From: an uncultured Acidobacteriota bacterium
Lineage (GTDB): Bacteria > Acidobacteriota > Vicinamibacteria > Vicinamibacterales > CAVVIG01
NCBI GenBank assembly: GCA_963711765.1
Contig: CAVQFC010000004.1
Location: forward strand, 835,138-899,137
Direction of reading: 5' to 3'
DNA: 64,000 nt
Shown here in pieces: positions 3,393-58,890 of the stretch; positions within the stretch are counted from its first letter, which is position 1, and each line of letters starts with the position of its first letter. Below the pieces are notes generated by a model. It had not been told where the DNA came from and did not search any database. It was given only the letters and a program-made list of their open reading frames with translations. The position numbers and the translations under genes were made by a program.

Positions 3393-3488
3393 TCATCAAC
3401 TCTCAACTGTCAACGTTCAACTCTCACGGCCGCGGTCCACTCCAACGCCCGGCGTCGAGGGCCGAGCCCCGAGAGTTGATCGCGGTGT

Positions 3489-4681: not shown

Positions 4682-6008
4682 TCAGATTCCCGCGCGGGCC
4701 GCCAGGTCGCGGGCCGCCGCTCGAGCTTCGATCGCAACCTCGAGCCGGTCGACCCGCACAGGCGCGAAGTCGTGGACCAGCAGTTCGCCGTCCACGATCG
4801 TCGTCCGTACGTCGCTGCCACGGGCCGCATAGACCAGCGTCGAATACGGATCCGGTCCCGGCGACAGATGCGGACGATCCCGCTCGACCACGATGACATC
4901 CGCGCGTTTGCCGACTTCGAGCGACCCGATCTCATGCTCGAGCCCCAGCGTCCGCGCGCCTGCCGTGGTCGCCATCGCGACGCACGTCGCGCGCCGGCAG
5001 GATCCCAGGCCGGACGCGCATCGCCTGGAGGATCGCGGCCAGGCGCATCTCGTCGAACATGTCGAGGCGGTTGTTGCAGGCAGCGCCGTCGGCTCCGAGC
5101 GACACGGTGATGCCGCGGGCGATCATCTCCGGCACCGGCGCGACGCCGGATCCCAGCTTCAGGTTCGAGCCCGGACAGTGCATCACCTTCACGTCGTGCT
5201 CGGCGAGCAGTCGCTGCTCGGCCTCGTCGGCCCACACGCAGTGCGCCGCGCACAGACGGGGCGTCGCCAGGTGAAGACTGGCCAGGTACGCGAGGTTGCC
5301 CAGGCCGCCGGACCGTTCGCGCACGATGGCAATCTCTTCGCGCGATTCCGACGCGTGGGTGTGGACCAGCGCGTGATGCTGTTGTGAAAGGCCGGCGACG
5401 GCCTCGAGGAGCTCGCGCGAGCACGAGACCGCGAATCGCGGCGCGAACGCCGCGTGCAGGCGGCCGTTGGCGGCGCCGTCCCAGCGCGCGCGGATGGCGA
5501 CGCTCTCGTCGATTGAGGCGCGGGTCTGTTCCTGCAGGCGGCCGGGGACCTGCGCGTCGAAATCCATCATGCACTTGCCGATGACCGCTCGCATCCCGCT
5601 CTCGGCGACCGCCTCGAACACCACATCCGTGTCGTGGACCGTCTCCATCGTCAGCACCGAGGTGGTGCCGCTGGCCAGAAGCTCGGTCGTGGCGAGCCGC
5701 GCCGCCGACCGAAGCGAGGCCGGGGTATGCGCCGCTTCCATCGGCCACACCCGCGTGCGCAGCCAGTCCATCAGCGGGAGGTCGTCGGCGAATCCTCGAA
5801 ACAGCGTCTGGCAGAGGTGAATGTGCGTCTGGATGAATCCGGGAAGGACGTAACCGCCGTGCGCGTCGATCGTGCGGGTGTGGGGCTCGGTGATATGCGG
5901 GGCGATGGCGGCGATGCGGCCGTCCTGGATCGAGACATCGCCCTCGACGATCTCGAACCGATCGTTCATCGTGACGACGATGCCGCCGCGTATCAGTAAC
6001 GACGACAT
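4682..6008 (-). pseudogene. Amidohydrolase (MtaD / cytosine-guanine deaminase-like), reading frame broken once
   Basis: The N-terminal 4932..6008 ORF (HIHLCQT, HTHASES, metal-ligand pattern) continues in the 4682..4975 ORF (MATTAGARTLGLEHEIGSLEVGKRADV). There is a single +1 shift near 4975-4990. Confidence 0.8.
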
Positions 6009-6014
6009 GCAGGA

Positions 6015-6118
6015 AATTCAGATTTCAGAATTCAGATTGCAGATCGAAACTTCAGGTTGGAACTTCTGACTTCTGAGTCGACACTTCTGGCTTCACACCT
6101 TTCACTTCTAACTTCAGC
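6015..6118. repeat. 7-nt periodic word array (GANTTCA then CTTCNNN words), imperfect hairpin
   Basis: The 7-nt register is kept from 6021 to 6118: gatttca gaattca gattgca ... cttctga cttctga ... cttcaca. It overlaps the last ~22 codons of the XdhC ORF. Confidence 0.6.
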
Positions 6119-6927
6119 GAAGCGGGAGTCCAGCGCATCGACGTTGGATGTTCTTTGCCGTGCTTGACCGCGATCAACTCGGCCAGAATGCTGACTGCGA
6201 TTTCCTGGGGCGTGACCGCGCCGATGTCGAGGCCGATCGGCGCATGCACCCGGGCCAGCAGATCGGCGGGCATCTGTTCGTCGACGAGCGCCTGATAGAT
6301 GCGCGCGACCTTGGCGCGGCTGCCGATCAAGCCGAGGTAGCGCAATTCGCGCGGCGCCAGCGCGCGAAGCGCATCGAGGTCGTTGGTGTGTCCCCGCGTC
6401 ACGATTACGGTGTAGGCGTGCGCGGGCAGGCGGGTGCGGGCGATCCACGCCGGAATGTCTTCGACCACGATTTCGACGGCGGCGGGAAAGCGCTCGGTGT
6501 TGGCGAACTTCTCGCGGTCGTCAACGACGTGGACGCGAAATCCCACTTCCTGGGCGACGCGGGCGAGATGAAAACCGACGTGGCCGGCGCCGATGATGTA
6601 GAGCTCGGGCGAGGGCTCGATCGGCTCGATGTAGACATCCATCTGACCGCCGCAGATGAGACCGCTTTCCTGCGCGAAATCGTCCGACAGTTCGTAGTGG
6701 ATCAACTGCGGAGCGCGGGTCACGATCGCTTCGCGCGCTTTCCCGAACGCGTCGTTCTCGTAGCAGCCGCCGCCGATGGTGCCGACGATCCGTCCGTCGC
6801 CGAACACCAGCATCTTGGCGCCGACCCGTTGAGGGGTCGAGCCGGTGGTGGAGACGATGGTCACCAGCGCGGCCGGTTCCCCGCGGTCGAGCGCGTCGGC
6901 GACGGCGGCAAAGACTTCGCGGTTCAT
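6052..6927 (-). CDS. XdhC/CoxI family accessory protein
   Basis: 291-aa ORF with an XdhC N-terminal region (VSTTGSTPQRVGAKM), a Rossmann segment (LYIIGAGHVG) and TRGHTNDLDAL. The C-terminal tail is encoded by the repeat array, so the true stop is uncertain. Confidence 0.8.
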   Translation of the reverse strand: MNREVFAAVADALDRGEPAALVTIVSTTGSTPQRVGAKMLVFGDGRIVGTIGGGCYENDAFGKAREAIVTRAPQLIHYELSDDFAQESGLICGGQMDVYIEPIEPSPELYIIGAGHVGFHLARVAQEVGFRVHVVDDREKFANTERFPAAVEIVVEDIPAWIARTRLPAHAYTVIVTRGHTNDLDALRALAPRELRYLGLIGSRAKVARIYQALVDEQMPADLLARVHAPIGLDIGAVTPQEIAVSILAELIAVKHGKEHPTSMRWTPASLKLEVKGVKPEVSTQKSEVPT

Positions 6928-6975: not shown

Positions 6976-9369
6976 CTATCGGTGCACGTCGCAGGTTTGC
7001 GTCGGCTCGGTCCCGGCGATGAACGACTCGTTGATCACTTTCGGACAGAACGGCGTCGCGAGCTTGCCGGTGGCCGCGTCGATGTTCACGAACGCAATGC
7101 CGTCAGGCACGTCGAAGGGGACGCTGGCCCGCCCGGCGAGCGCGGTTTTCATGAACTGGGTCCAGATCGGCAGCGCCGCGCGCGCACCGCTGAGTCCGAC
7201 CGGCTGGTTGTCGTCGAAGCCGACCCAGACGACGGTGAGCAGGTCGGGTGTGAAACCTGCGAACCAGGCGTCCCGCAGGTCGTTGGTGGTGCCGGTCTTG
7301 CCGGCGGCGTCGAGCGTGAACCCATTGGCACGTGCGCTGGCGGCGGTGCCCTCGTTGAGCACGCTGCGCATCATGTTGGTGACCAGAAACGTCGTGTCGG
7401 AACGTGCGACGCGGCGCGGCGGCACCTCCTTGTCCCTGGTGACGTCCTTGCCGCCGCTGACGATCTTCAACAGGTGCTTCAACGGTCGGATCGCGCCGCC
7501 GTTGGGAAACAGCGTATACGCGGTGGCGATTTCATACGGCGTCGCCTCGAACACGCCGAGCGCAATCGACGGATACGCCTTCGGCGCCGCGCCGACGCCA
7601 AGCGTCTTCCAGAAATTCGCGACACGGTCGTAACCTGCCGCCTGCGCGACATGGATGGTGCCGAGGTTGCGCGAATGTGCCAGTGCGCGCCGGAAGGTGA
7701 TGGGGCCGTCGTACTCGTGCTCGTAGTTCTCCGGTGTCCACTCCTGATCGTCGAACTCGAATGTCTCCTGCTCGTCGTTGGTGATTGACGCCGGCGTGAT
7801 GTCGGCGCGCCCCTGCCTGGCGGCCTCCTCGAATGCGGTGAGGAACACGAACGGCTTGAACACCGATCCGGGCTGGCGGCGTGATGCGATGGCGCGATCG
7901 TATTGCGACTGGTTGTACGAACGCCCGCCGACGAACGCCAGAATCTCGCCGGTGTGTGGATCCACCGCGATCAGCGCGGCCTCGGCCTTTCCGCGCTTGC
8001 GCCTGGCGAGCAGGCTGTCCACCTGAAGCAGGCCATCGCGCACGGCGTCCTGCGCCAGACGCTGCAGGTGCAGATCGAGCGTCGTGTACACATCGACCGG
8101 CTGCGTCGTCGTCGTGGTCAGGCCCGGATAGCGCTCGTCGAGCGTCTGTCCGACGTAGTCGACGAAGTAGGGCGCCTCGGATTCGAGCGCCCGCTGGACC
8201 ACCAGCAGCGGCTCGTGGATGGCGCGCTCGGCGGCGTCCTGCTGAAGATAGCCGGCGTCCACCATCGACTGGAGTACCACGTTGCGGCGCTCGCGGCAGC
8301 GCACCGGGTTGTTGAATGGCGACAGCGCCGACGGCGACTGGAAGACGCCGGCGATGGTCGCCGCTTCAGCGAGCGAGACGTTGCTGACGTCCTTGCCGAA
8401 GAACAGCCGCGCCGCTTCCGCAACGCCGACGATGCCGAACGAGCCGCGCTGACCGAGGGTCATGTCGTTGAGGTACATCTCGAGGATGGCGTCCTTGGAC
8501 GCGCGGGTGGTGAGGATCAGCGAGACCCAGACTTCGAGCAGTTTGCGGCGGACCGACTTCTCGCGTGCGTCCTTCAGCGTCATACCGGGAAACATCTTCG
8601 GCAGGAAGACATTGCGCGCGACCTGCTGCGTGATCGTGCTGGCGCCGGACATATACTGACGCCGACCACTCAGGTTCGAGACGATCGCGCCAGCGATGCC
8701 GATCGGATCGATGCCGGGGTGATCGTAGAAGCGGCGATCCTCGATCGACAGCACCGCCTGGGTCAGCCGCGAGGGAATTGCCGCGATCGCCACGGGCCGC
8801 CGCTTTTCCCGATCGCCAACCGTCAACGTCGTCAAGACCGGCGCGTCCAGAATCAGCCGCTCGCTCGGCGCTCCGTTGATTTCCAGCCCGAGGACATGAT
8901 CGGCCGGACGCGGACGGACCGGAGGAGGCGGCGGTTTGCGCGCCGGCGTCTTTGGTCTCACATCCGGTCGCTGGAACACCACGCGCACGATCTGACCCTT
9001 GAGCTCGGGCGTGCGCGCCATCAGCGCCACGACACCGGTGCCGGTCGTGAATTCGCCAGGCTTCCCGATCGCGGTGCGCTGCGCGTAGCCGAGGTCGTTC
9101 AGGCGGTCGATCAGCTGCCGATCGGTGAGCGCCTGGCCCCGTCGCAGTTCGAGCGGCCGCGCGAACACGCGGGGAAACGTGGTGGCGCGCTCGCCGTGCA
9201 GCCGCACGTCGATCAAGTGCGCGAACCGGACGTAGTAATAGGTCGCGAGCCCGCAGAGGATGACGGTCGGGATGGCGAGCGCGAGGGCGACCACACGCAC
9301 CCAGCCCTTGCGCCAGGTGGCGACGACCCGGAAGCGAAGACGTTTGCCTTTCGGTTTAGATCGTGACAA
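6976..9369 (-). CDS. Penicillin-binding protein 1A family (bifunctional glycosyltransferase/transpeptidase)
   Basis: 797-aa ORF with an N-terminal TM helix, GT51 motifs (EDRRFYDHPGID, GASTITQQ) and transpeptidase motifs SVFKP, SRN, KTGTT. Confidence 0.9.
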   Translation of the reverse strand: MSRSKPKGKRLRFRVVATWRKGWVRVVALALAIPTVILCGLATYYYVRFAHLIDVRLHGERATTFPRVFARPLELRRGQALTDRQLIDRLNDLGYAQRTAIGKPGEFTTGTGVVALMARTPELKGQIVRVVFQRPDVRPKTPARKPPPPPVRPRPADHVLGLEINGAPSERLILDAPVLTTLTVGDREKRRPVAIAAIPSRLTQAVLSIEDRRFYDHPGIDPIGIAGAIVSNLSGRRQYMSGASTITQQVARNVFLPKMFPGMTLKDAREKSVRRKLLEVWVSLILTTRASKDAILEMYLNDMTLGQRGSFGIVGVAEAARLFFGKDVSNVSLAEAATIAGVFQSPSALSPFNNPVRCRERRNVVLQSMVDAGYLQQDAAERAIHEPLLVVQRALESEAPYFVDYVGQTLDERYPGLTTTTTQPVDVYTTLDLHLQRLAQDAVRDGLLQVDSLLARRKRGKAEAALIAVDPHTGEILAFVGGRSYNQSQYDRAIASRRQPGSVFKPFVFLTAFEEAARQGRADITPASITNDEQETFEFDDQEWTPENYEHEYDGPITFRRALAHSRNLGTIHVAQAAGYDRVANFWKTLGVGAAPKAYPSIALGVFEATPYEIATAYTLFPNGGAIRPLKHLLKIVSGGKDVTRDKEVPPRRVARSDTTFLVTNMMRSVLNEGTAASARANGFTLDAAGKTGTTNDLRDAWFAGFTPDLLTVVWVGFDDNQPVGLSGARAALPIWTQFMKTALAGRASVPFDVPDGIAFVNIDAATGKLATPFCPKVINESFIAGTEPTQTCDVHR

Positions 9370-11127: not shown

Positions 11128-13170
11128 TTGCGCGTCGGTGCGTTGAACGCGAGGCGGTTCAATGTTACGATTCGTGGGCCTTCCTCTAGGAGTTTTTCAC
11201 TGCACACGGAACCTTCCGGCACTGCGCCTCCTGACGCGTTCGGACCGTTTCGTGTTCTTCATCAGATCGGTGCAGGGACGTTGGGGCCGGTGTTCCGCGC
11301 GTACGACGCGGAACGCGAGCGGCTGGTCGCGGTCAAGCTGTTCAATCTCGACCTGCCGCCGGAAAAAGGGCACCAGCTGGTCGCGGCATTCGAGCGGCTG
11401 ATCGCCGCCGACCTCACGCATCCCGCGCTGGCGTCGCCGCTGGCGACCGGCATCACCGGCGTCTCGGCGTTTCTGGCGCAGGACTACGTTGCGGCCGAGT
11501 CGCTCGACTTGTCGGTGCGGGAGTACGGTCCGGCGCCGCCAGCCGAGGCGTTGCGTGTGGCCGCCCAGCTCGCCGGCGCGCTCGATTTCGCCGCCGTGGT
11601 CAATATCAGCCACGGCGCGCTGCACCCCCGGGACGTGTTGATGTCGTCGGACGACACGCGTCTCACCGGCATGGGCGTCGCCCATGCGCTCGAAACGGTC
11701 GGCGTCACGGCGCCCGTCCGCCGACCGTACTCGCCACCGGAGCGCGTGGCCGGCGCCGCGTGGAATCGTCGGGCCGATGTGTTCAGCCTCGCCGCCCTGA
11801 TCCACGAACTGCTCTGGGCGCGGCGCGTGTCAGGCACCGGCGCCCGGGCCGCCGAGAGCCTGACGGCAATCGAGGGTGGCGACCGCGAACGACTGCGAGC
11901 GACCTTCGGGCGCGCGCTCGCGGAGAGTCCCGACGATCGGTACGAAACGGCGCTCGAGTTCGCCGAGGCCTTGAAGGAAGCGTTTCCGGCCATCGTGCTG
12001 GCGCCGCCGGCACCAGTGGACCGTCGAGCGAGGAAGGCGCGGTCCGGATCGTCAGCGGACCGGAACGGCGGCAAGGTCGGGGAGAAGCGGGCGACGCCGG
12101 AAGTGGAGCCGCGGCTGCCGCTCGACACCGAACTGCCGATGGTTCGCGCGACGGCGGCCCCGGCCGACATCGCCGACGCGTTCACGCAGGGCCCGGTCCC
12201 CGACCTGGAAATGAGCGCGGGCGCGCACGACGACTTGAAGGGGGCGGGACGGATCGGTCAGAAGCAGGCGGTCCCGGTGCGGCCGGAACCGATCAGGGAA
12301 ACAACGAGGGAGACAACGAGGGACTCGCCGAAGGAAACGACCAGGGAAACGACCAGGGAACCCGAGTTTCTTTCCGTGCTCGAGCGGTCGCGCTCAGCGG
12401 TCTGGCCGCTGGTGCTGGCGCTCGCCGTCGGCATCGCGATCGGCTTCGCCGCCGGTTATGGCACCGGTTCGCAGCGCCAGAACCTGGCGACCACTGCAGG
12501 CAGCGCGCCTGGACGCGAGTTCACGGAAGGCGCGGTGCCCGAGACGGGCAAGCCGGCTCTCGCCGCAGCGTCACCGGATGCCGCCAAGACGACCGCGAAA
12601 CCGGCGGCGAGAGTCAGCCCGCCGGCGCCGCAAGCGCCGGTCGAACCTGGGCCCGAGAGCGGTCGGCTGCTGGTGCGGTCCACCCCTGGAAACGCTGCGG
12701 TGTCAGTCGACGGCCATGACGCCGGTCGAACGCCGGCGACTGTCCGCGATATCTCTTTCGGTGCGCATCACGTGCGTGTCACTCGCGACGGCTACACGGC
12801 GCTCGATCGACGCGTGGTCGTCACCGCATCGCGTCCGGCGGCATCGATCGACTTCGAACTGGTCCGCGAAAAGGCGCCGATACCTGAGCCGCGTCGTGCG
12901 CCCGCGGCAGGGGCGGCAGGAGCGCCGCCGCCGGCGCCGCCAGTCAGGGCGGCCAGCGGTCCCGGTCCGCTGCGCGTGGATTCGCGGCCGGTGGGAGCGT
13001 CGGTGTATCTGGACGGACGGCTGGTCGGCGTGACGCCGTTGTCGTTGCCGGCCGTGCCGGCCGGCGAGCACACCATTCGTCTTCAGCTTGACGGCTATCA
13101 GTCGTGGGCGTCTGCAGTCCAGGTGGTGTCGACTGAAGCCAATCGGGTCACGGCGTCGTTGGAGCGATGA
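11128..13170 (+). CDS. Ser/Thr-kinase-like (predicted pseudokinase) membrane protein with two C-terminal PEGA domains
   Basis: Kinase-fold N-terminus (GAGTLGPVFRA, VAVKLF), but HGALHPRD replaces HRDLKPxN and GMG replaces DFG. Then a TTRE-rich repeat, one TM helix and two PEGA-like units (LLVRSTPGNAAVSVDG.., LRVDSRPVGASVYLDG..). The start is uncertain: there is no in-frame ATG, the ORF opens at 11038, and TTG codons sit at 11128 and 11143. Confidence 0.75.
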   Translation: MRVGALNARRFNVTIRGPSSRSFSLHTEPSGTAPPDAFGPFRVLHQIGAGTLGPVFRAYDAERERLVAVKLFNLDLPPEKGHQLVAAFERLIAADLTHPALASPLATGITGVSAFLAQDYVAAESLDLSVREYGPAPPAEALRVAAQLAGALDFAAVVNISHGALHPRDVLMSSDDTRLTGMGVAHALETVGVTAPVRRPYSPPERVAGAAWNRRADVFSLAALIHELLWARRVSGTGARAAESLTAIEGGDRERLRATFGRALAESPDDRYETALEFAEALKEAFPAIVLAPPAPVDRRARKARSGSSADRNGGKVGEKRATPEVEPRLPLDTELPMVRATAAPADIADAFTQGPVPDLEMSAGAHDDLKGAGRIGQKQAVPVRPEPIRETTRETTRDSPKETTRETTREPEFLSVLERSRSAVWPLVLALAVGIAIGFAAGYGTGSQRQNLATTAGSAPGREFTEGAVPETGKPALAAASPDAAKTTAKPAARVSPPAPQAPVEPGPESGRLLVRSTPGNAAVSVDGHDAGRTPATVRDISFGAHHVRVTRDGYTALDRRVVVTASRPAASIDFELVREKAPIPEPRRAPAAGAAGAPPPAPPVRAASGPGPLRVDSRPVGASVYLDGRLVGVTPLSLPAVPAGEHTIRLQLDGYQSWASAVQVVSTEANRVTASLER

Positions 13171-17762: not shown

Positions 17763-17859
17763 CATCACGAAGGCACGAAGGCCACGAAGGCCACGAAGTC
17801 TCTTTAATACGAGAGCTTAATGCGGTTCCTGTGCTTCGTGACCTTCGTGTCACCGTGAT
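17763..17859. repeat. ACGAAG-word hairpin element, copy 1 (REP/MITE-like)
   Basis: Left arm catcacgaaggcacgaaggccacgaaggccacgaag; right arm cttcgtgaccttcgtgtcaccgtgat. Intergenic between carB and comEC. Confidence 0.65.
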
Positions 17860-17895: not shown

Positions 17896-20544
17896 ATGCG
17901 CGCGGCTGCCGCGGTTCCGGCCGCTGGCTTGCTCGGTGGGGCGGCTGCGGGCCTGCTGCTTCCTGATTTCTCTCATTCAATTCTCTTCGTCACGCTGATA
18001 CTCGCCGGCCTGTCGTCAGGGTGGGCGTGGCGCGGTGGCAAGCCCCGCGTCATTGTCATCGGTGTCGCGGCCGGGTTTTTCGCCGGCGGGATGCTCCTCT
18101 CTTCGACCGCCTGGGAGCGGGCGTGGCGGCCGTCGTTGCGGACGGCGTTCGAGGAACTCGCGCGATCGCGTCGCGTCGAGGCAGCGGCCGAAGGCCGCAG
18201 GTTGCCGGAAGACGACGAGGCGTTCGCAGTCGTCGAGGGGAGGTTGCGGGCCGACGCCGCGCGCCTGGACAGCGGCGTCTCGTTGAGCCTGGACGTCGAC
18301 ACGCTGGCCGAGCCGAACCCGCTGCTGAAGTCTGGCGCCGCGGTCTCCGCCGCCCCGATCGGCTCGGCGGGCCGACGCGTGGGCGGTGCGAAGGCTGGAG
18401 GCGCTCTCCTCACGATTCTCGGTTCGTCTGCGCCGGGCCTGGCGGACAGCTGGCGTGCCGGCCGCCGCGTGCGAATGCCGGCCGAGTTGCGGCGGCCCTC
18501 GCGTTACCTCGATCCGGGCGTGCCCGACAACGAGCGGGCGCTCGCCAGACGCGGCACGACGCTGGTTGGAACCGTGAAGAGCGGAGCGCTGGTCGAGATC
18601 GTGGCCCGCGGCAGCGTCCTCGACGAAGCGATGGCGAGCGCCAGGGCCACGGCACGCGTGGCGATTGGCGGAAGCGTTGGTCGATGGAGCCCCCAGGCCG
18701 GTGCGATTGTCGCCGCGATCGTGATCGGCGATCGGGCCGGTCTCGATCAGGACGTCCAGCGGCGCCTGCAGGAAGCCGGTACCTACCATGTGATCGCGAT
18801 TTCCGGCGGCAACATCGCCATCCTGGCCGGCCTGCTGATTGGCGGCTTCAGGTTCGCCGGCAGCCTTGGTCGCGGAGCGATGGTGTCCTCGATCGCAGTG
18901 CTGCTTGGCTACGCTCAATTCGTCGGCGGCGGCGCATCCGTCAACCGCGCGACGCTGATGGCGGTGCTCTACTTCGGCGCGCAGATCTTCGACCACAAGA
19001 GCTCGCCCTTGAACGTGCTGGCTGTGGTCGGGGCGCTGCTGGTCGCCGTCGATCCGCTTTCGGTTGCCGACCCGGCGTTTCTGCTCACGTGCGGCGCGAC
19101 CTTCGCGATTCTCGTCGTTGCGCCGCTGGCCGCGATGATCAACGCCAAGCTCGCGAAGCACGCAGAGAGAAAGCAACGATCTGCTGATTCTGCGAGTACC
19201 GCGGTCGCTGCATTGATCGTCGTGGCGCTGCAGGAGGGTGTCTCGATGTTCGTTGCATCGGCGGCCACCGAGGCGCTGCTGTTTCCAGTTGGCGCAGCGG
19301 TGTTTTCCCGCGTCACGTTCGCCGGCCTGGCGCTGAACTTCCTGGCCATTCCGTTGATGGCGGTCGCGCAGATTGCCGGCATGACGGTGGTGCCGGTATC
19401 CCTGGTGTCGACGCGAGCGGCGCAACTGTTCGGATGGGTTGCGTATCTGGGCGCCGCCGGACTGGTCGCATCGGCCGATCTGGTTCGCTTCGTGCCCGCG
19501 TTGACATATCGAATCGCCAAGCCGCCATGGATCACCATCGCCGTCTACTACATCGCGCTGGTGGCGGTCTGGCTCGCAGCCGGGCGACTGCGCCGCCGCG
19601 TGGTGCGCGTCGCCGCACCGATTGCCGTCGCCGCCGCGCTCTGGATTCTGGTCGATCCGCGCACCCTGGTTCGACGCGGGGACGGCCGCCTGCATGTGAC
19701 ATTCCTGGATGTCGGACAGGGCGACTCTGCGCTGGTCACGTTTCCGTTGGGATCGACGCTGCTCGTGGACGCCGGCGGAGTTGGGTCGTCCTCGTCGTTC
19801 GATATCGGCGATCGCGTGGTGGCGCCGGTGATCAGGACCGCAGGGTATCGCCGCCTCGATCGCATGGCGTTCAGTCACGGCGATCCGGATCACATCGGCG
19901 GGGCGTCTTCGGTTCTTCGCGAATTCCGGCCGCTGCAGGTGTGGGAGGGGATCCCAGTGCCGCGGTCCACGGCGCTGACGTCATTGCGCCTTGCCACCGA
20001 ATCCGCGGGCGAGCGGTGGGCCAATGTCTATGCCGACGATCACGAGTGGATCGACGGGGTGGAAGTCGTCGCGCGCCATCCGGTGCCGGCCGACTGGGAG
20101 CGGCAGAAGGTGCGGAACGACGACTCGCTGGTGCTGGAGCTTCGCTGGCGCGAGGTCTCGGTCGTGCTGACTGGCGACATCGGCGCCGGCGTCGAGCGGT
20201 CCATCGCCGATCGGTTTCCGGCATCGACGCTGCGGGTGATCAAGGTGCCGCACCACGGCAGCGCGACGTCGAGTTCGCGGGACTTCATCGAGGCGCTGCA
20301 TCCGCAGGTCGCGGTCGTCAGCGTCGGCCGGGGCAATCATTTCGGTCACCCCGTGCCGGCGGTGCTCGAGCGCTACCGAGCCGTCGGCGCCGAGATCTTC
20401 AGAACCGACCAGGACGGCGCGGTCACGATGGACAGCGATGGCGACTCGATTGCGATGACGACGTTCAACGGCCGAAGGTTGAACATGTCGGCACTCGAGG
20501 CACATCACGAAGACACGAAGAGCACGAAAGCCACGAAGCCTTGA
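17896..20544 (+). CDS. comEC: DNA internalization-related competence protein ComEC/Rec2 (with C-terminal MBL domain)
   Basis: 882-aa ORF with a multi-TM competence domain and an MBL domain (FLDVGQGDSALV, HGDPDHIGG, KVPHHGS). The last ~13 codons (HHEDTKSTKATKP) lie in repeat copy 2. Confidence 0.85.
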   Translation: MRAAAAVPAAGLLGGAAAGLLLPDFSHSILFVTLILAGLSSGWAWRGGKPRVIVIGVAAGFFAGGMLLSSTAWERAWRPSLRTAFEELARSRRVEAAAEGRRLPEDDEAFAVVEGRLRADAARLDSGVSLSLDVDTLAEPNPLLKSGAAVSAAPIGSAGRRVGGAKAGGALLTILGSSAPGLADSWRAGRRVRMPAELRRPSRYLDPGVPDNERALARRGTTLVGTVKSGALVEIVARGSVLDEAMASARATARVAIGGSVGRWSPQAGAIVAAIVIGDRAGLDQDVQRRLQEAGTYHVIAISGGNIAILAGLLIGGFRFAGSLGRGAMVSSIAVLLGYAQFVGGGASVNRATLMAVLYFGAQIFDHKSSPLNVLAVVGALLVAVDPLSVADPAFLLTCGATFAILVVAPLAAMINAKLAKHAERKQRSADSASTAVAALIVVALQEGVSMFVASAATEALLFPVGAAVFSRVTFAGLALNFLAIPLMAVAQIAGMTVVPVSLVSTRAAQLFGWVAYLGAAGLVASADLVRFVPALTYRIAKPPWITIAVYYIALVAVWLAAGRLRRRVVRVAAPIAVAAALWILVDPRTLVRRGDGRLHVTFLDVGQGDSALVTFPLGSTLLVDAGGVGSSSSFDIGDRVVAPVIRTAGYRRLDRMAFSHGDPDHIGGASSVLREFRPLQVWEGIPVPRSTALTSLRLATESAGERWANVYADDHEWIDGVEVVARHPVPADWERQKVRNDDSLVLELRWREVSVVLTGDIGAGVERSIADRFPASTLRVIKVPHHGSATSSSRDFIEALHPQVAVVSVGRGNHFGHPVPAVLERYRAVGAEIFRTDQDGAVTMDSDGDSIAMTTFNGRRLNMSALEAHHEDTKSTKATKP

Positions 20545-20578
20545 GCGTGCGGCTCGATCTTCGTGCCTTCGTGATGAG
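20503..20578. repeat. ACGAAG-word hairpin element, copy 2
   Basis: Left arm catcacgaagacacgaagagcacgaaagccacgaag, a loop, then cttcgtgccttcgtgatgag. It sits between the convergent comEC and mazG genes. Confidence 0.65.
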
Positions 20579-21704: not shown

Positions 21705-21788
21705 CAGGCGTCAGGCGTCAGCCAGAAGTCGTTAGCCAGCAGCCACAGGTCCTCCCGTGCAGTCAGCAACTAGCATTCAGCCATCAGA

Positions 21789-22601
21789 ATGTCCGTGAGC
21801 GCCATTCGCGTCACCGTCCTCGGTAGCGGCACGTCCCATGGCGTGCCGGCGATTGGCTGCAACTGCGCGGTCTGCACGTCGACGGATCCGCGCGACCGCC
21901 GGAGCCGTCCGTCGATCCTGATCGAGATCGTTCGCCGCCAGGACGAACCGGCGTTTGCGGCCGGCGTCCGCTCGATTCTTGTGGACACTTCGACCGACTT
22001 GCGGAGCCAGGCGCTGGCCCACGACATCCGTCGCGTTGATGCGATCCTGTTCACGCACTGCCACGCCGACCATGTGTTCGGCCTGGACGACGTGCGTCGG
22101 TTCAATCAACTGCAGAAGGGATCGATTCCGTGTTACGCGGATGAAGAGACCGTGAACGGTCTGCGGCGCATGTTCTCGTACGTGTTCGAGCCGCCCCGAC
22201 AGAAAGGCGGCGGCATTCCGCAACTCGCGCTGTTTCGCATCGCCGGACCATTCACGCTCGGCGGCGTCGAGATCGTCCCGGTCCCGCTGATGCACGGCAC
22301 GCTGCCGGTGCTCGGCTTCAGAATCGGATCGTTCGCGTACCTGACCGACTGCAACAGCATTCCCGACGCGTCGTGGCCGCTGCTGGATGGCGTCAATACC
22401 CTCATCCTCGACGCGCTGCGCCATCGTCCGCATTCGACGCATTTCAGCGTCGGCGAATCGCTCGACGTGGTGGCGCGGCTCGGCGTGGAGCGCGCCTACT
22501 TCACGCACATCTGCCACGATCTACCGCACGCGCAGACCTGCGCCGAACTGCCGGCCGGCGTGCAGTTGGCCTATGATGGCCTGGTCTTGGAGAACGCGTG
22601 A
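21789..22601 (+). CDS. MBL-fold metallo-hydrolase (PhnP-like)
   Basis: 270-aa ORF with LGSGTSHGVP, CxCxxC and THCHADHVFGLDD motifs. Confidence 0.75.
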   Translation: MSVSAIRVTVLGSGTSHGVPAIGCNCAVCTSTDPRDRRSRPSILIEIVRRQDEPAFAAGVRSILVDTSTDLRSQALAHDIRRVDAILFTHCHADHVFGLDDVRRFNQLQKGSIPCYADEETVNGLRRMFSYVFEPPRQKGGGIPQLALFRIAGPFTLGGVEIVPVPLMHGTLPVLGFRIGSFAYLTDCNSIPDASWPLLDGVNTLILDALRHRPHSTHFSVGESLDVVARLGVERAYFTHICHDLPHAQTCAELPAGVQLAYDGLVLENA

Positions 22602-23550: not shown

Positions 23551-23835
23551 GTGCCCGAGCAGGAGTTTTTCTTCGCGCTCGACCTGTCCGACGAGCCGCC
23601 CTTCGATCAGATGGTCGGCGACCTGGCACTGGCCGTGCTCGGTCAGATCGGCTACGAGCCTGGCGTCACCGGTGAACTGATCAAGGGGTTGCGCGCCGCC
23701 CTGGCCGAACGGGTCGCCGGTGGGCAGCGTCGCTGCACGGTCCGGTTCGTAGCCGGCGGTGGCGAGCTCCAGTTGACTGTCGATGGTGGCGGCGGCCCGG
23801 AGTGGCGCACCACTCGTCCTCTTCCGGCCTCCTGA
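23551..23835 (+). CDS. Hypothetical small protein (94 aa, GTG start)
   Basis: GC3-rich frame filling the ribF-cysS gap. The sequence VPEQEFFFALDLSDEPPFDQMVGDLALAVLGQIGY..CTVRFVAGGGELQLTVDGGGG is only vaguely HATPase/anti-sigma-like. The start is unsupported by an SD. Confidence 0.4.
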   Translation: MPEQEFFFALDLSDEPPFDQMVGDLALAVLGQIGYEPGVTGELIKGLRAALAERVAGGQRRCTVRFVAGGGELQLTVDGGGGPEWRTTRPLPAS

Positions 23836-23838
23836 CCC

Positions 23839-25257
23839 ATGCGCCTGTACAACACCCTCACCCGCACGCGAAGAGCCCTTCGCGCCCGGCACCGATCAGC
23901 ACCGTCCGCATGTACACGTGCGGGCTTACCGTCTACGCCCGCGGACACATCGGCAACTTCCGGACGTTCATCTGCGTGGACGTTCTGCGCCGGACGCTCA
24001 AATACCTGCTCGGCTACAAGATCCGGCAGGTGATGAATTTCACCGACGTGGACGATCGCACCATCATCGGCGCGCAGAAGGCCGGCATGGATCTGCGCAG
24101 CTACACCGATCAGTACATCGCGATGTTTCGCGAAGACGCGCGTCGCTCTTGGACTCGAGGCGGTCGAGGAAACGCCGCGCGCCACCGACCAGGCGAACCT
24201 GCAGGCGATGGCCGATCTGATCCGCGCGCTCGACAAGAACGGTCACACGTACGTCAGCGACGGTTCGATCTATTTCAAGATTTCGACGCTTGCCCGGCTA
24301 CGGCAAGCTGGCGCATCTCGATTTCGAGGGCATGCAGCCGGGCGCGCGCGTCGACACCGACACCTACGCGAAAGACGATGCGCGGGATTTCGTGCTGTGG
24401 AAGGCGACCAAGCCGGACGAGCCGACCTGGGATCTGGTCGATCCGCCGGGACGTCCAGGCTGGCACCTCGAGTGCTCGGCGATGGCGCTGCGGCTGCTCG
24501 GCGAGTCGCCGATCGACATCCACGCCGGCGGCATCGACCTGATTTTTCCGCATCACGAGAACGAGATCGCGCAGAGCGAAGGCGCGACCGGCAAGCTGTT
24601 CTCGCGCTTCTGGGTCCACGTCGAGTATCTGATCGTGGACGAGCAGAAGATGTCGAAGTCGCTCGGCAACACCTACACGATTCCGCGACGTCATCGAGCG
24701 CGGCTACCGGCCGTCAGCGGTCCGCTACCTGCTGCTGTCCGCGCACTATCGCAAGCAGCTGAACTTCACCTGGGCCAGCCTGGGCCAGGCCGAAGAAGCG
24801 CTTCGTCGGCTCACCGATTTTCTGGCGCGGCTCGACACTGTCACCGTCGCGGGTGAGTATCCGTCGATTGCGGCGCGGGTCGCCACCGCCCGTCAGGAAT
24901 TCTCCGAGGCGATGCAAGACGATCTGAACACCGCGTCCGCGCTGGGGGCGGTATTCGAGCTGGTGCGCTCGCTGAACTCCGCGATGGACGCGGGTCAGGT
25001 CGGCACCGGCGATCTGCCGGGCATCAAGGACGCGTTCGAGCAATTCGACCTCGTGCTCGGGGTGTTGAGCCTGCGTCAGGCCGAGGACGAACGTCCGCCG
25101 GTGCCGATCGAGGAGATCGATCGCCTGATCGAGGATCGTCACGCCGCGCGACGCCGTCGCGATTTCGCCGGCCGCCGATCGCATCCGCGACGATCTGGCT
25201 ACCCGGGGTGTGCTCCTCGAAGACAGCGCCGGCGGCACCCGCTGGAAGAAGAAGTGA
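23839..25257 (+). pseudogene. cysS: Cysteine--tRNA ligase, frame broken six times (frames 1-2-0-1-2-0-1)
   Basis: MRLYNTLTRT.., MYTCGLTVYARGHIGNFR (HIGH-type), [10 protein letters not shown] and KMSKSLGN are all present but lie in successive +1 frames. The stop is at 25255-25257. Confidence 0.9.
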
Positions 25258-26585
25258 CGAGCCCGCCCCAGATCAACACTCCGCTGCCAGGTCCGAGGGC
25301 AAAAGCCATCATCGAGCGCGACCGCACGGTCGTGTCGCCGTCTTACACGCGCGGCTATCCGCTGGTCATCGAACGCGGGATCGGGCGCGATGGTCGAGGA
25401 CGTGGACGGCAACGTATTCCTCGACTGCGCGGCTGGCATCGCCGTCAACTCGACCGGCCACTCGCATCCCGACGTCGTGCGCGCGATCACCGAGCAGGCG
25501 CAGCGCTTCCTGCACATGTCCGGCACCGACTTCTACTACGAGCCGCAGGTGCGGCTCGCGGAGGAACTCGCGTCGATCGTGCCGATTGCCGGCGGCGTCC
25601 GATCGTTCTTCGGCAACTCGGGCGCGGAAGCCATCGAAGCCTGCCTGAAACTGGCCCGTTACGCCACCGGCCGTCAGAACCTCATCGCGTTTCTACGGCG
25701 GTTTCCACGGCCGGACGATGGGGGCGCTGTCGCTGACGGCGAGCAAGGCGATTCAGCGTCGCGGATTCGGGCCGATGATGCCGGGCGTGTTTCACGCGCA
25801 CTATCCGGATCGGTACCGCTGTCCGCTCGGCGCGACGCCCGACACCGTCGCGGAAGCGTGCATCGACTTCGTCGAGCATCAGCTGTTCACGCAGGTCGTC
25901 TCACCTGACGAAGTCGCCGCGATCGTCGTCGAACCGATCCAGGGCGAAGGCGGTTACATCGTGGCCGCCGACGAGTTCTTCGCAGCGTCTGCGCGAGCTG
26001 ACCAGGAAGCACGGCATCCTCCTCGTGGTGGACGAAGTGCAGTCCGGGATGGGGCGGTCCGGGAAGATGTTCGCGATCGAGTACACCGGCGTCGAGCCGG
26101 ACGTGATGGCGATTGCCAAGGGCATCGCCTCGGGTCTGCCGCTCGGCGTGGCGGTGGCGCGGGCCGGGCTGATGGCGTGGCCGCCGGGCGCGCACGCGAG
26201 CACGTTCGGCGGCAACCCGGTCTCGTGCGCGGCGGCGCTGGCGACGATCTCGCTGCTGAAGACGCGGCTGGTAGCGAATGCGGCCGCGGTCGGCGCGTAT
26301 CTGATGGACGGGCTGCGGTCGCTGGCCGACAAGCATCCGCTGATCGGCGACGTTCGCGGTCGTGGTCTGATGATCGGCGTCGAGCTGGTCGGGATCGCCA
26401 GACCAAGGAGCGCGCGACCAGCGAGCGCGACGCGGTCGTCACGGCGGCGTTCAACCGCGGACTGCTGGTGCTCGGGGCGGGGAAGAATGCGGTCCGCTTC
26501 TCGCCGCCGCTGGTGCTGACGCGAGAGCAGGCAGACACCGCGGTCGAGGATTTTCGACGAGGCGCTGACCGAGGTCTCGGCCTGA
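25254..26585 (+). pseudogene. Class-III PLP aminotransferase (4-aminobutyrate/acetylornithine aminotransferase-like), frame broken about 5 times
   Basis: The GTG start overlaps the cysS stop. Motifs FLDCAAGIAVNSTGHSHP, FFGNSGAEA, GFHGRT, LVVDEVQSGMGRSGKMFA, KGIASGLP and STFGGNP are spread across frames. Confidence 0.8.
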
Positions 26586-26600
26586 TGTTTGCTGCGCTGA

Positions 26601-26972
26601 TTGAGCATGACGCAGGCTCGCATCGCCCTTGGAAAATCCGGTGAAGATCTCGCGTGTGCGGAACTCGAGCGGCGAGGGTACGTCGTTCTTGCGAGGCGAT
26701 ACCGCCGACGTGGTGGAGAATTGGACATCATCGCTCGCGACGGTCAGACGATCGTGTTCGTGGAAGTGAAGACGCGGGAGGGTCGTGCATTCGGCGACGG
26801 CAGCGAAGCCGTGACGCCGTGGAAGCAGCGTCGGATGACTCATCTGGCCAACGACTTTCTTGCGCGTCATCATCTCATCGACCGTCCCTGCCGGTTCGAC
26901 GTCGTCGCGATCCATTTCGCGAACGGCGCGCCGGTCATCGACGTGTTTCAGAACGCATTCGACGCTGCTTAG
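26601..26972 (+). CDS. YraN family endonuclease (UPF0102)
   Basis: 123-aa ORF with GKSGEDLACAELERRGY, GELDIIARDG, VFVEVKTR and RFDVVAI. Confidence 0.8.
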   Translation: MSMTQARIALGKSGEDLACAELERRGYVVLARRYRRRGGELDIIARDGQTIVFVEVKTREGRAFGDGSEAVTPWKQRRMTHLANDFLARHHLIDRPCRFDVVAIHFANGAPVIDVFQNAFDAA

Positions 26973-27035
26973 GATTTCAGATCTCAGACTTCAGATTTCA
27001 GACTTCACACTTCACTCACACTTCAAACTTCTGTA
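26973..27035. repeat. Nine direct heptads exactly filling the yraN-galT spacer
   Basis: GATTTCA GATCTCA GACTTCA GATTTCA GACTTCA CACTTCA CTCACAC TTCAAAC TTCTGTA, followed immediately by the galT ATG at 27036. Confidence 0.7.
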
Positions 27036-28038
27036 ATGCCTGACCTTCGCAAGGATCCGATTACCGGCCGGTGGGTCATCATCTCCACCGATCGCCAGAA
27101 GCGCCCGAACGACTTCCGCGTCGAGTCGGCGACCATTCTCGGCCGCGAGCACTGCCCGTTCTGTCCCGGCCACGAGGCGATGACGCCGTCCGAAGTGCTG
27201 TCGTATCGCACTGATGGCGGCGCGCCCAACACGCCGGGCTGGAACGTGCGGGTCGTTCCGAACAAGTTCCCGGCGCTTCAAGTCGAGGGCAATCTCGATC
27301 GCCAGGGCGAGGGCATGTTCGACCGCATGAACGGCATCGGCGCCCACGAGGTGATCATCGAGACCCCGGATCACGATCGGCCGCTGGCGATGATGACCGA
27401 GCAGGAGATCGAGCGGGTGTTCTGGGCGTGCCGCGAGCGCATGCTGGACCTGAAGCGCGACGTTCGGCTGCGCTACATCCTCATTTTCAAGAATCATGGC
27501 GCGGCGGCGGGCGCGACGCTGGCGCATCCGCACTCGCAGCTGATCGCGCTGCCGATCGTGCCCGAACTGGTGCGCCAGGAAATCGAAGGCGCGCGGCGGC
27601 ATTTCGAGATCAAGGAGCGCTGCGTGTTCTGCGACATCATCCAGCAGGAGCGTGCCGACGGCCGTCGGGTCATCGAGGAGAACGCCGACGTGGTGGCGCT
27701 GGCGCCGTACGCGCCGCGATTCGCGTTCGAGACGTGGCTCCTGCCGCAGGCGTCACGGGTCGCGGTTCGAGGAGGCGGAGCGTCACCAATACGCGAGCCT
27801 GGCCCGGCTGCTGAAGACGGTGCTGCAGCGGCTGAACCGCGCGCTCGAGGTGCCGCCGTTCAACCTGGTCGTGCACACCTCGCCATTTTCGGAGGACGTG
27901 GCCAGCGAGTACCACTGGCACGTCGAGATCATGCCGAAGCTGACGCGGGTGGCGGGCTTCGAGTGGGGGACCGGGTTCTACATCAACCCGACGTCGCCGG
28001 AGGAGGCGGCCCAGGTGCTGCGCGAGGTCAAGGTATGA
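27036..28038 (+). pseudogene. galT: Galactose-1-phosphate uridylyltransferase (GalT family), one +1 frame break
   Basis: CPFCPGHE zinc site and HPHSQ active-site motif. The shift is at gg 27749-27750; removing one g gives LLPQRHGSRFEEAERHQY... and joins ORFs 27036.. and 27652..28038. Confidence 0.8.
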
Positions 28039-28120
28039 TGGCGGAGGGTTCCGGAGCGGTCGGTCGCGCGGCTCGCGAGCTTGAAAGCGAGCCCAGCGGT
28101 GTGGTACTTTGGGGGTTCGG

Positions 28121-28195
28121 GCGGGAATAGCTCAGTGGTAGAGTGCGACCTTGCCAAGGTCGAAGTCGCGGGTTCGAATCCCGTTTCCCGCTCCA
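28121..28195 (+). tRNA. tRNA-Gly (anticodon GCC)
   Basis: Acceptor gcgggaa/ttcccgc, anticodon loop cttGCCaag, T-arm ggttcgaatcc, encoded CCA end. Confidence 0.9.
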
Positions 28196-28254: not shown

Positions 28255-28328
28255 GGCGCCGTCGCCAAGAGGTAAGGCAGAGGTCTGCAAAACCTCCACC
28301 CCCGGTTCAAATCCGGGCGGCGCCTCCA
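28255..28328 (+). tRNA. tRNA-Cys (anticodon GCA)
   Basis: Acceptor ggcgccg/cggcgcc, anticodon loop tctGCAaaa, T-arm ggttcaaatcc, encoded CCA end. Confidence 0.9.
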
Positions 28329-50505: not shown

Positions 50506-50847
50506 ATGTGGACGAAGATGATGTCGGGGCCGCGCAAGAAGGCTCCGAAGACGATCGCGGTCATCGATCCCGATAGCTGCTTCGGTGCGTTTGCGTGTTC
50601 CATCTGCCAGGCTGCCTGCCCGGTCGCCGGCTGCATCGTCGAAGAGCCGGACCGAGACGGCCGGATGGTCTGCGCCGTGCGCGCCGACCTCTGCATCGGC
50701 TGCGGCCTCTGCGTCACGCTCGGAAATCCCACCGCGCCCCAACAGCGCGAGTTCGGCTGCCCGGCCGACTACGACGCCATCAACATGATGCCGTGGGAAG
50801 AGGTCGTCAAGATTCTCACAAGTGAGAACTCGGAAGTCACAACTTAG
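50506..50847 (+). CDS. 4Fe-4S dicluster domain protein
   Basis: 113-aa ORF with CFGAFACSICQAACP and CIGCGLCV...GCP cysteine patterns. Confidence 0.7.
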   Translation: MWTKMMSGPRKKAPKTIAVIDPDSCFGAFACSICQAACPVAGCIVEEPDRDGRMVCAVRADLCIGCGLCVTLGNPTAPQQREFGCPADYDAINMMPWEEVVKILTSENSEVTT

Positions 50848-50886
50848 AAGTGTGAAGTTCGAACTTCACACTTCACCCTTCTCACT
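50821..50886. terminator. Heptad-word hairpin with a 28-bp perfect palindrome, between convergent genes
   Basis: gaagtgtgaagt-tcga-acttcacacttc (50847-50874) is flanked by agtgagaa (50821-50828) and ttctcact (50879-50886). It overlaps both stop codons (50845-47 and 50882-84). Confidence 0.6.
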
Positions 50887-51794
50887 TCTTCGTCGTTCCG
50901 TGCGTAGCGCGGAAGTAGCGCGACGGCAGCGGGTGATCGATCTTCGAGGCGATGAACGTCGGACGCGTCGCTCACCGCATCCAGCGACACTCCCGTTTCG
51001 AATCCCCAGTCCGTCCAGCATGTAGAGCAGGTCGTCGGTGGCCAGATTGCCTGCGGCGCCCGGCGCGTACGGGCAGCCACCGAGGCCACCGGCTGACGCG
51101 TCGAAGGTGGCGATGCCATAACGGCAACGCGGTCAGAACGTTCGCGAGCGCCGTTCCGCGCGTGTCGTGGAAGTGCAGCGCGACGTGATCGACAGGCAGC
51201 CGCGTCAAGCACCGCGTCGAGCACCCGCGGCACCTGGCCCGGATGCGCGATGCCGATGGTGTCGCTGATCGCGACTTCGAACACGCCGAGTTCGCTCAGT
51301 CGCGCGGCGACGTCGGCGACACGTTCCGGCGCCACCTCTCCTTCGAACGGGCAGCCGAACGCCGTGGACAGATAACCGCGCACGCGAAGACCGGCCGCGA
51401 TCGCCCGATCGCACACCTGCCGGTAGCCGGCGAGCGATTCGTCGATCGACTGGTTGATGTTCTTCCGGCTGAACGTTTCGGTCGACGCTGCGAAGATCGC
51501 GATCTCGGTGACGCCGGCGGCCAGCGCGCGATCGAGCCCGGCGAGATTCGGCACCAGCGCGGTGTAGCGGATGCCGGCAGCACGGCGCGATGCCCGCGAA
51601 CACCTCGCCGGCGTCGCGCCATCTGCGGCACCCATTTCGGGCTGACGAACGCCGACACCTCGATCACCGGGAGGCCGCGCCGCGCTCAGGCGGTCGACGA
51701 AGGCGATCTTGTCGGCCGTCGCGACGGTGACGTGCTCGTTCTGCAGACCGTCGCGCGGACCGACTTCGACGATCGTGACGCGAGTTGGGGTCAT
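50882..51794 (-). pseudogene. Hydroxymethylglutaryl-CoA lyase, seven +1 frame breaks
   Basis: MTPTRVTIVEVGPRDGLQNE, IEVSAFVSPKWVPQMA, HFHDTRGTALANV and [12 protein letters not shown]-type segments are found in stepping frames 2-1-0-2-1-0-2-1. Conceptual tail: ..[25 protein letters not shown]. Confidence 0.8.
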
Positions 51795-54515: not shown

Positions 54516-54533
54516 GGCGTCCCGGTTGTCAGT

Positions 54534-54623
54534 ATCACGAAGGCACGAAAAACACGAAGGTCACGAGAGATCATTGGTTGAGCGTACTTGGCACTCGATG
54601 TTCTTTGTGTGCTTCGTGATGAG
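54534..54623. repeat. ACGAAG-word hairpin element, copy 3
   Basis: tatcacgaaggcacgaaaaacacgaaggtcacgag, a loop, then ttctttgtgtgcttcgtgatgag. It lies inside the liu-like operon, between the carboxyltransferase stop and the hydratase start. Confidence 0.65.
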
Positions 54624-58848: not shown

Positions 58849-58890
58849 CCCAAGTCAGCAACCTGAACCTGAACTGTTACGGAGAGACAC

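Follow-up and report, generated by a model that had tools for sequence, protein, structure and literature searches.

The window analyzed here is a 64,000-nt stretch of DNA from an uncultured Acidobacteriota bacterium of the order Vicinamibacterales (assembly GCA_963711765.1, contig CAVQFC010000004.1, positions 835,138 to 899,137), and the element under study was the short, repeat-filled spacer between its yraN and galT genes. The yraN gene (UPF0102; 26601 to 26972, plus strand, with TTG at 26601 or ATG at 26607 as start codon; Pfam PF02021, E=1e-27) ended with the stop codon TAG at 26970 to 26972, and the galT-like gene (galactose-1-phosphate uridylyltransferase family; 27036 to 28130 as listed, plus strand; Pfam PF01087) began with the ATG at 27036; the coordinates, sequence, and 63-nt length given for the intervening spacer in an earlier note on this DNA were confirmed by direct reading of the window. 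The YraN C terminus ...VFQNAFDA was conserved in 20 loci, and the galT start was considered secure because 19 related loci opened with the same Met-Pro-Glu/Asp-Leu. The spacer was composed of three parts, all read on the plus strand: (i) a core array of six heptads, GATTTCA, GATCTCA, GACTTCA, GATTTCA, GACTTCA, and CACTTCA (26973 to 27014), recognized by Tandem Repeats Finder (TRF), register analysis, and shuffles; (ii) a 4-nt partial unit CTCA (27015 to 27018) that moved the register from 1 to 5; and (iii) two heptads in the new register, CACTTCA and AACTTCT, and a final GTA that reaches the ATG (27019 to 27035). Direct reading bore out the earlier note in that the spacer contained no Shine-Dalgarno (SD) motif.

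The period-7 repeat before galT was real but imperfect. TRF called 26976 to 27014 with period 7 (5.6 copies, score 50, 81% matches) and also reported super-periods of 14 (score 57) and 21 (score 63) at the same array; among 100 shuffled versions of the window (block-wise, dinucleotide), the top period-7 score was 40, below the observed 50, and the window yielded five period-7 TRF rows versus a mean of 0.69 per shuffle. The units displayed a fixed core TTCA with two to three variable positions, and the ACTTCA/ATTTCA word occurred six times in register 1 (26974 to 27009) and then in register 5 at 27020 and 27027. The spacer had been described as a pure direct array of exactly nine heptads: the direct array itself stood up to TRF and the shuffles, but it was not pure, with CTCA breaking the register and GTA left over, and the count came to six heptads in one register, 4 nt, two heptads in another, and 3 nt over. 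Strict 7-nt phasing over the whole spacer likewise failed at the internal register shift, and with a layout of 6x7+4+2x7+3, the length of 63 was a multiple of 7 by coincidence.

The spacer had the composition T21 A18 C18 G6 (38% G+C) with no GG, and its 6 G in 63 nt fell short of the G-quadruplex pattern of at least four tracts of at least three G. The minimum free energy of the spacer RNA was -9.1 kcal/mol (z = +1.1), indicating that it folded less stably than its own shuffles. A search for an inverted partner arm within 300 nt of the array came back empty, in agreement with the direct, unpaired layout proposed before; scans of the spacer found no promoter-like or terminator-like site; and the Rfam matches of the window at gathering threshold were tRNAs only, with no match in 26850 to 27150 even at E<=1. 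The yraN and galT genes shared a reading frame, and the 63-nt array contained no in-frame stop (26970 to 27038), so that read-through of the single TAG would fuse YraN and GalT; in another frame of the same junction, a TAA overlapped the galT start (TAATG).

Heptad arrays were also present elsewhere in the window, and four genes of the window in all had heptads adjoining the start codon. The CAGAYTT word family (ATTTCAG/ACTTCAG/ACTTCAC) was found at three loci, 6010 to 6117, 26973 to 27035, and 50846 to 50888, and its degenerate two-unit pattern gave nine matches in the window versus 1.5 expected (0 of 100 shuffles reached nine). At 6010 to 6117, about 100 nt of ATTTCAG/ACTTCAG/ACTTCTG lay between an xdhC-like gene (6052 to 6927, minus strand) and an amidohydrolase gene (4932 to 6008, minus strand), adjoined the amidohydrolase ATG, and read antisense (CTGAAAT) on the mRNA of these minus-strand neighbors; this array made up the final ~21 codons of the XdhC-like open reading frame (ORF) (6055 to 6117, minus strand), past the end of the Pfam domain, and thus arrays can lengthen reading frames until the repeat yields a stop. 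The locus at 50846 to 50888 had the inverted pair AGAAGTGTGAAGTT / AACTTCACACTTC, forming a hairpin at 50846 to 50875, plus direct copies of the same family, and it started in the stop codon that ends a ferredoxin-like gene (50506 to 50847), sharing the last two bases of that gene. Two further arrays carried other words: (i) TCAACTC x4.4 in the hrcA-grpE spacer (3393 to 3426), reading GAGAGTT GAACGTT GACAGTT... on the sense strand and adjoining the grpE ATG at 3392; and (ii) the 84-nt DUF1844-MBL spacer (21705 to 21788, plus strand), adjoining the MBL-fold ATG at 21789. The latter, put forward in the earlier note as exactly 12 heptads, proved to hold two arrays in different registers, namely six CAGNNNN in register 0 and four NNNNCAG in register 3, with 13 to 14 nt of nonrepeat sequence between them.

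The search for period-7 arrays was extended to 80 loci retrieved by a GalT protein scan with one genome per species (all but a few titled Acidobacteriota, with a few mislabelled; the closest GalT loci were Vicinamibacterales or 'gp6' metagenome-assembled genomes [MAGs]), and TRF was run on these together with the window (0.9 Mb in total), with period-7 arrays counted at >=3 copies. The Vicinamibacteria-like part (237 kb) yielded 27 such arrays and the Terriglobia-like part (678 kb) yielded 83, giving a density of 11 to 12 per 100 kb versus ~5 per 100 kb or less for any other period; period 8 reached 5 per 100 kb in Terriglobia, and the other periods were several-fold rarer than 7. Nearly all merged period-7/8 arrays (136 of 142) lay outside called genes, with ~85% of the sequence being coding and the calls being made by codon bias, a crude procedure hampered by frameshifts. 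When 50 kb each of Nostoc PCC 7120 plasmid alpha (the positive control) and Escherichia coli K-12 went through the same pipeline, the plasmid yielded three arrays and E. coli a single weak one, which was intragenic. Genome-wide 7-nt periodicity, for which the earlier note had proposed a check, was thereby confirmed, with period-7 arrays constituting an intergenic class spread across genomes and across the phylum; in the autocorrelation analysis that had been proposed for the same purpose, a lag-7/14 bump was seen in the intergenic set but it was only modest, and the set was contaminated by uncalled frameshifted coding sequence, making the TRF counts more informative.

The arrays had a median of 4.4 copies (maximum, 10.9) and comprised more than 60 distinct canonical units without a common core: CAG as a shared core was found in 20 of 62 units versus 14.5 expected, which was not significant, and single-linkage clustering of the units gave no informative grouping. 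When arrays lying >400 nt apart in one genome were compared in pairs, the canonical unit was identical in 11.3% versus 0.09% for random heptamers, and the identical-unit rate between classes was 0.6%. The likeness of some acidobacterial words to Nostoc words (e.g., CAGTCAT) was within chance given the 14 rotations/strands per unit, and an assembly artifact was ruled out because arrays recurred in numerous assemblies made independently from short or long reads. The galT spacer is thus ordinary for its lineage, being one of many intergenic arrays in Acidobacteria.

The two classes differed in how their arrays were arranged: inverted pairs accounted for 58% of the Terriglobia arrays and for 2 of the 29 in the Vicinamibacteria set, with Terriglobia arrays being mostly inverted pairs near SD-bearing starts and Vicinamibacteria arrays being mostly single (27 of 29). 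For example, the Terriglobia locus L032 contained at 9295 to 9357 a hairpin of CAGTTTC x4 / GAAACTG x4 between a stop codon and the SD site of the next gene, and the position of this hairpin was kept in L043, L051, L062, L065, L038, and L059. Across these seven Terriglobia loci in total, the stem was kept through U-G and G-U wobbles of the sense strand at variable positions. A single CAGTCRT array located ~450 nt from the L032 hairpin was similarly conserved.

The yraN-galT synteny was preserved in 20 of 20 Vicinamibacteria-like loci, while the junction itself displayed several states: (i) an 8-nt overlap ATGCCTGA, with the stop inside the start, in five loci; (ii) a 1-nt overlap in one; and (iii) gaps of 16 to 193 nt in the remainder. 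Nine gaps held heptads of differing sequence, namely GAYTTCA, GAACCNN, GNCTTTT, TTTTCAC, AGCCCTS, and CTGCAAT, the last of which resembled the window word in reverse orientation. An enrichment of spacer lengths for multiples of 7, for which the earlier note proposed a test, was not seen: the lengths of the nine array-bearing orthologous spacers left residues of 0, 2, 6, 4, 0, 1, 1, 4, and 4. Word number varied among orthologous spacers, with both copy number and length differing and the arrays varying freely. The refuting conditions named in the earlier note thus came out divided, the periodicity being present and the length bias absent. The nearest relative, locus L004 (~90% DNA identity over 7 kb), had a yraN-galT spacer of 76 nt versus 63 nt in the window, and the first array in its DUF1844-MBL spacer, made of CAGTCRT units, was 37 nt longer. 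On the GalT neighbor-joining tree, the overlap state was scattered among array-bearing lineages, and sister pairs shared a word family (window/L004 and L012/L015). The ancestral junction appears, from this comparison of sequences, to have been the 8-nt stop/start overlap, and the simplest reading would be that heptad arrays, which then persist over moderate divergence, opened it on at least five occasions. When the units were compared with the galT 5' end (CCTGAACT) by longest common substring, as bearing on a local-duplication idea, p was 0.04 to 0.56 per locus, and the same comparison against non-galT arrays gave p = 0.10.

Four perfect CAGAYTT units matched at least 120 metagenome contigs. 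Among the matches listed, most contigs had 60 to 70% G+C, many had long runs of perfect copies, some contained inverted pairs (16 of 88 high-GC copies being paired by a strict test), and the flanks and loops of the family members were unrelated. With the array read as CAGAYTT on '+', the flanking genes of the high-GC matches listed were both on the minus strand in 18 cases and both on the plus strand in 14, with 18 convergent pairs and two to three divergent ones; 18 versus 14 indicated no orientation bias relative to transcription, and the two to three divergent cases indicated strong avoidance of promoter-only spacers. Arrays of this class appear restricted to transcribed, noncoding, nonpromoter spacers. 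In 17 of the 120 matches listed (e.g., L081, L090, L093, L099, L118, L126, and L137), the array lay <=60 nt from the end of the stored locus, and therefore arrays may break short-read assemblies. Three contigs of 35 to 40% G+C (L125, L156, and L195) contained CAGATTT arrays with the identical 3' flank CAGATTAAGAATGTTAAA[C/T]ATC, which, on the strength of that shared flank, suggests a distinct dispersed element with the same heptad in an unrelated low-GC organism. A scan of metagenomes with the galT 5' end returned no match, and an exact look-up of the GalT protein returned no other contig.

The genes around the spacer contained several frameshifts. The galT ORF was frameshifted near residue 238 (near 27750), its conserved C terminus continuing in the +1 frame to a stop at ~28036, and the domains of cysteinyl-tRNA synthetase (cysS) and an aminotransferase were split across ORFs and frames (23551 to 25736 and 25718 to 26644); galT of L004 was truncated as well. 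These frameshifts suggest either pseudogenes or that the assembly, which may be a long-read MAG, contains indel errors, and on account of those in galT, cysS, and the aminotransferase gene, the exact spacer lengths of this assembly are not fully trustworthy. The genes for tRNA-Gly(GCC) (28121 to 28195) and tRNA-Cys(GCA) (28255 to 28328) lay directly downstream of galT, and the 10-nt overlap of the galT ORF with tRNA-Gly was an artifact of the frameshift.

A second repeat family was also present, consisting of hairpin elements whose arms were tandem CACGAAG(N1-3) units with a period of 8 to 9. Its copies were located at 17764 to 17858, 20504 to 20576, and 54533 to 54622 in the window, at 5405 to 5526 in L004, and at about 4400 to 4470 in L015; they had the termini ATCACGAAG...CTTCGTGAT and unrelated loops of 20 to 35 nt, and two of these hairpins flanked a comEC-like gene. 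The 120-nt copy of L004 lay at the aminotransferase-yraN junction, was absent there from the window, and displayed no obvious target duplication. Two other repeats of the window were AGGGAAACGACG, a 12-nt unit present in 5.5 tandem copies within a long ORF (12295 to 12360), and a short run of the hexamer AACCTG (58860 to 58874) upstream of a gene at 58891.

The yraN-galT spacer is a copy of a dispersed intergenic heptanucleotide class, characteristic of Acidobacteriota and of the same kind as the short tandemly repeated repetitive (STRR) sequences of cyanobacteria and the GGGAATC repeats of Xanthomonas. It is probably a slippage-resized, fast-turnover simple-sequence array acting as a passive spacer, rather than a sequence-specific phased binding site. 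The suggestion of slippage-generated filler, raised in the earlier note beside that of a binding array, gained from the lineage-wide occurrence of the class, the copy-number change in the closest relative, and the unrelated heptads or missing spacers elsewhere. The arrays would grow and shrink through replication slippage or unequal exchange between units, and they would survive only where a repeat that is not a multiple of 3 is harmless, i.e., in transcribed operon spacers and at 3' ends rather than in coding sequence or in divergent spacers that carry promoters; their tolerance in spacers would follow from such a repeat being lethal only inside genes. At the galT junction, the array would part the yraN and galT frames, which are translationally coupled in relatives, and would set a 38% G+C, G-poor, unstructured leader before an ATG without SD, with no specific factor reading the 7-nt phase. 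The array-bearing yraN-galT leaders folded at -0.004 to -0.24 kcal/mol/nt versus -0.343 +/- 0.093 for random 75-mers of the window, and the nonarray spacers at this junction (L001 and L018) folded as strong hairpins. In the Vicinamibacteria set, 18% of called starts were preceded by an SD-like motif versus 14% in the control region (43% versus 15% in Terriglobia); with SD motifs being barely enriched in the lineage, an unstructured leader should keep the galT start accessible.

Several points weigh against the slippage-spacer reading. The 80 loci are syntenic and hence are not independent samples, and the starts were called as the first start codon of each ORF, so that miscalls dilute the SD counts; the role of the array as an accessible leader for galT is one that we infer. 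Slippage alone does not explain why 7 nt should be preferred over 5, 8, or 10, and local slippage does not explain the sharing of words across one genome: identical words at separate loci of one genome point to dispersal, homogenization, or word-specific selection. Moreover, the sense-strand wobbles of the conserved Terriglobia hairpin suggest an RNA-level constraint for some paired arrays.

The alternatives were weighed against the same data. Under a phased-platform model, the heptads would be bound by a repeat-reading protein or a complementary RNA regulating galT, as in TRAP- and CsrA-type leaders or iterons; the TTCA core fixed among two to three variable positions would suit such a factor, the few words favored per genome could mean that it is genome-specific, and the opposite arrays (6010 to 6117 in minus-strand transcripts versus 26973 to 27035) would be mutually complementary as RNA. 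It was nevertheless judged improbable, and the sequence-specific phased binding array considered in the earlier note lost its footing: more than 60 unit types shared no core, the orthologous junction carried unrelated, reversed, or no words, the orientations relative to transcription were equal among the matches listed, the phase was loose with register breaks inside the spacer, and no Rfam match was found at E<=1. A tuning or contingency locus, at which slippage would reversibly alter galT translation or transcription through copy changes like those of the heptanucleotide promoter repeats of some pathogens, would fit the difference in spacer length between close relatives, the contact of the array with the galT start codon, and the long perfect runs among the metagenomic matches listed, which would be hypermutable; the imperfect copies of this array (81% matches), however, suppress slippage, its neighbors and those of the other arrays are housekeeping genes (yraN, galT, hrcA-grpE, and xdhC) rather than surface or host-interaction genes, and convergent spacers and 3' ends, from which no start site could be tuned, have arrays equally often among the matches listed, leaving this model quite unlikely. 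Loading of Rho onto a C-rich, G-poor, unstructured tract that would set yraN/galT polarity agrees with the T21 A18 C18 G6 composition and the unstructured RNA of the galT spacer but is highly improbable, with the hrcA-grpE and xdhC-amidohydrolase arrays being G-rich on the sense strand, the CAGAYTT family showing no orientation bias among the matches listed, and the closest analogues occurring in cyanobacteria, which are not known to have Rho. As a general explanation for the arrays, Rho loading was rejected on the varying sense-strand C/G skew and the absence of orientation bias among the matches listed.

The remaining two alternatives invoke movement of the repeats. The galT array might be a former arm of an inverted heptad pair, i.e., a decayed hairpin or REP-like (repetitive extragenic palindromic) element that lost its partner: the same family makes the hairpin at 50846 to 50875, about a fifth of the high-GC metagenome copies (16 of 88, among the matches listed) and 58% of the Terriglobia arrays are paired, word sharing within genomes suggests dispersal, and a 120-nt hairpin element was inserted at another gene junction of L004. 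This origin appears rather unlikely in view of the missing partner within 300 nt, the low share of paired arrays in the Vicinamibacteria set (2 of 29), and the unrelated flanks and loops among the matches listed, which leave no conserved element body; no transposase turned up, though none was searched for. In a broader form, equally doubtful, the arrays would be phylum-wide, genome-specific dispersed elements comparable to REP sequences and bacterial interspersed mosaic elements (BIMEs), with words copied between junctions by a copy mechanism or dedicated enzyme that sets the 7-nt quantum, and they would serve as modular RNA parts: an inverted pair would act as a hairpin between cistrons, a single array as an unstructured leader for SD-independent translation or as an insulator, and copies in opposite orientation might even pair in trans. 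The word sharing of 11.3% versus 0.09% keeps a dispersal or trans-factor model alive. None of the rivals fitted the combined orientation, conservation, and context data as well as the slippage-spacer reading did.

Taken singly, the finding matters little: a striking spacer turned out to be a routine simple-sequence array. Its wider meaning is that heptanucleotide arrays are the dominant tandem-repeat class in the noncoding DNA of two acidobacterial classes and are abundant in the metagenome contigs retrieved, most of them high in G+C, and it touches the questions of the 7-nt unit length and of the spread of the words, which have stood since STRRs and the prokaryotic excess of heptamers were described. 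The recurrent colonization of the same junction, the small word vocabulary per genome, and the contrast in pairing between Terriglobia and Vicinamibacteria all bear on them. In practice, besides possibly breaking short-read assemblies, the arrays can make called ORFs too long or too short.

An excess of heptameric units among the simple sequence repeats (SSRs) of bacteria is stated in PMC4692102, which cites Mrazek et al. 2007 for it and also relays a hypothesis for the 7-nt preference that involves polymerase slippage and the stretch of DNA inside the active site of the polymerase. The acidobacterial arrays resembled this general SSR excess in the preference for period 7 over neighboring periods, in their location in noncoding DNA, and in the slippage proposed for both. 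In the survey of Huang and Mrazek 2014, perfect 7n3 repeats were normally represented (median 0.00) in four acidobacterial genera (PMC4060949); that survey scored perfect repeats, whereas the arrays found here were mostly imperfect and are not described in it. Full-text searches of the literature turned up no report of such arrays from Acidobacteria.

The closest known systems are the repeats of cyanobacteria and Xanthomonas. In Calothrix, three tandem heptanucleotides were described as STRRs (PMC4692102); STRRs usually have a 7-bp unit and are able to fold into intercistronic hairpins, for example between hupS and hupL, and their function is unknown, with transcript stability or translational coupling having been proposed (PMC2670836). 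Like the STRRs of Calothrix, Nostoc, and Anabaena, the acidobacterial arrays were 7-bp, tandem, imperfect, and intergenic, often lying between operon cistrons, with several word families at many loci of one genome, some inverted-pair hairpins, and a comparable density when the same pipeline was run on the Nostoc plasmid. They differed in occurring in Acidobacteriota, here in a genome of 65% G+C, in their words (CAGAYTT, CAGTCRT, GAACCNN, and others), and, in the Vicinamibacteria set, in being mostly unpaired and often adjoining starts without SD. The GGGAATC repeats of Xanthomonas and GGGGAYT repeats of Nostoc reported by Rehm et al. 2015 mostly separate ORFs of the same direction and occupy either strand (convergent, 16%; divergent, 7 to 9%), lie <=50 bp from start or stop codons, include many inverted pairs, are transcribed, and vary extensively in length and sequence between close species (PMC4692102). 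The arrays described here shared with them the heptameric unit, intergenic location, both orientations, few divergent cases (18/14/18/2-3 among the matches listed), closeness to start or stop codons, inverted pairs, and variability between close species, while the published repeats are G-tract sequences that prefer four units and are proposed to form G-quadruplexes, which the galT array cannot.

Two further systems were compared. REP and BIME elements are likewise short, dispersed, genome-specific transcribed repeats at gene junctions and 3' ends, and the paired heptad arrays form hairpins as they do, but REPs are single palindromes rather than tandem 7-mers, with a conserved GTAG/CGTC tag and a cognate REP-associated tyrosine transposase (RAYT), whereas the galT array contains no palindrome. 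RNA leaders bound at several sites by oligomeric proteins, such as the 11 triplet repeats recognized by TRAP, have in common with the galT spacer a periodic short word directly upstream of the start; TRAP-type leaders conserve the word, its spacing, and its orientation among orthologues, whereas the yraN-galT junction conserves none of the three.

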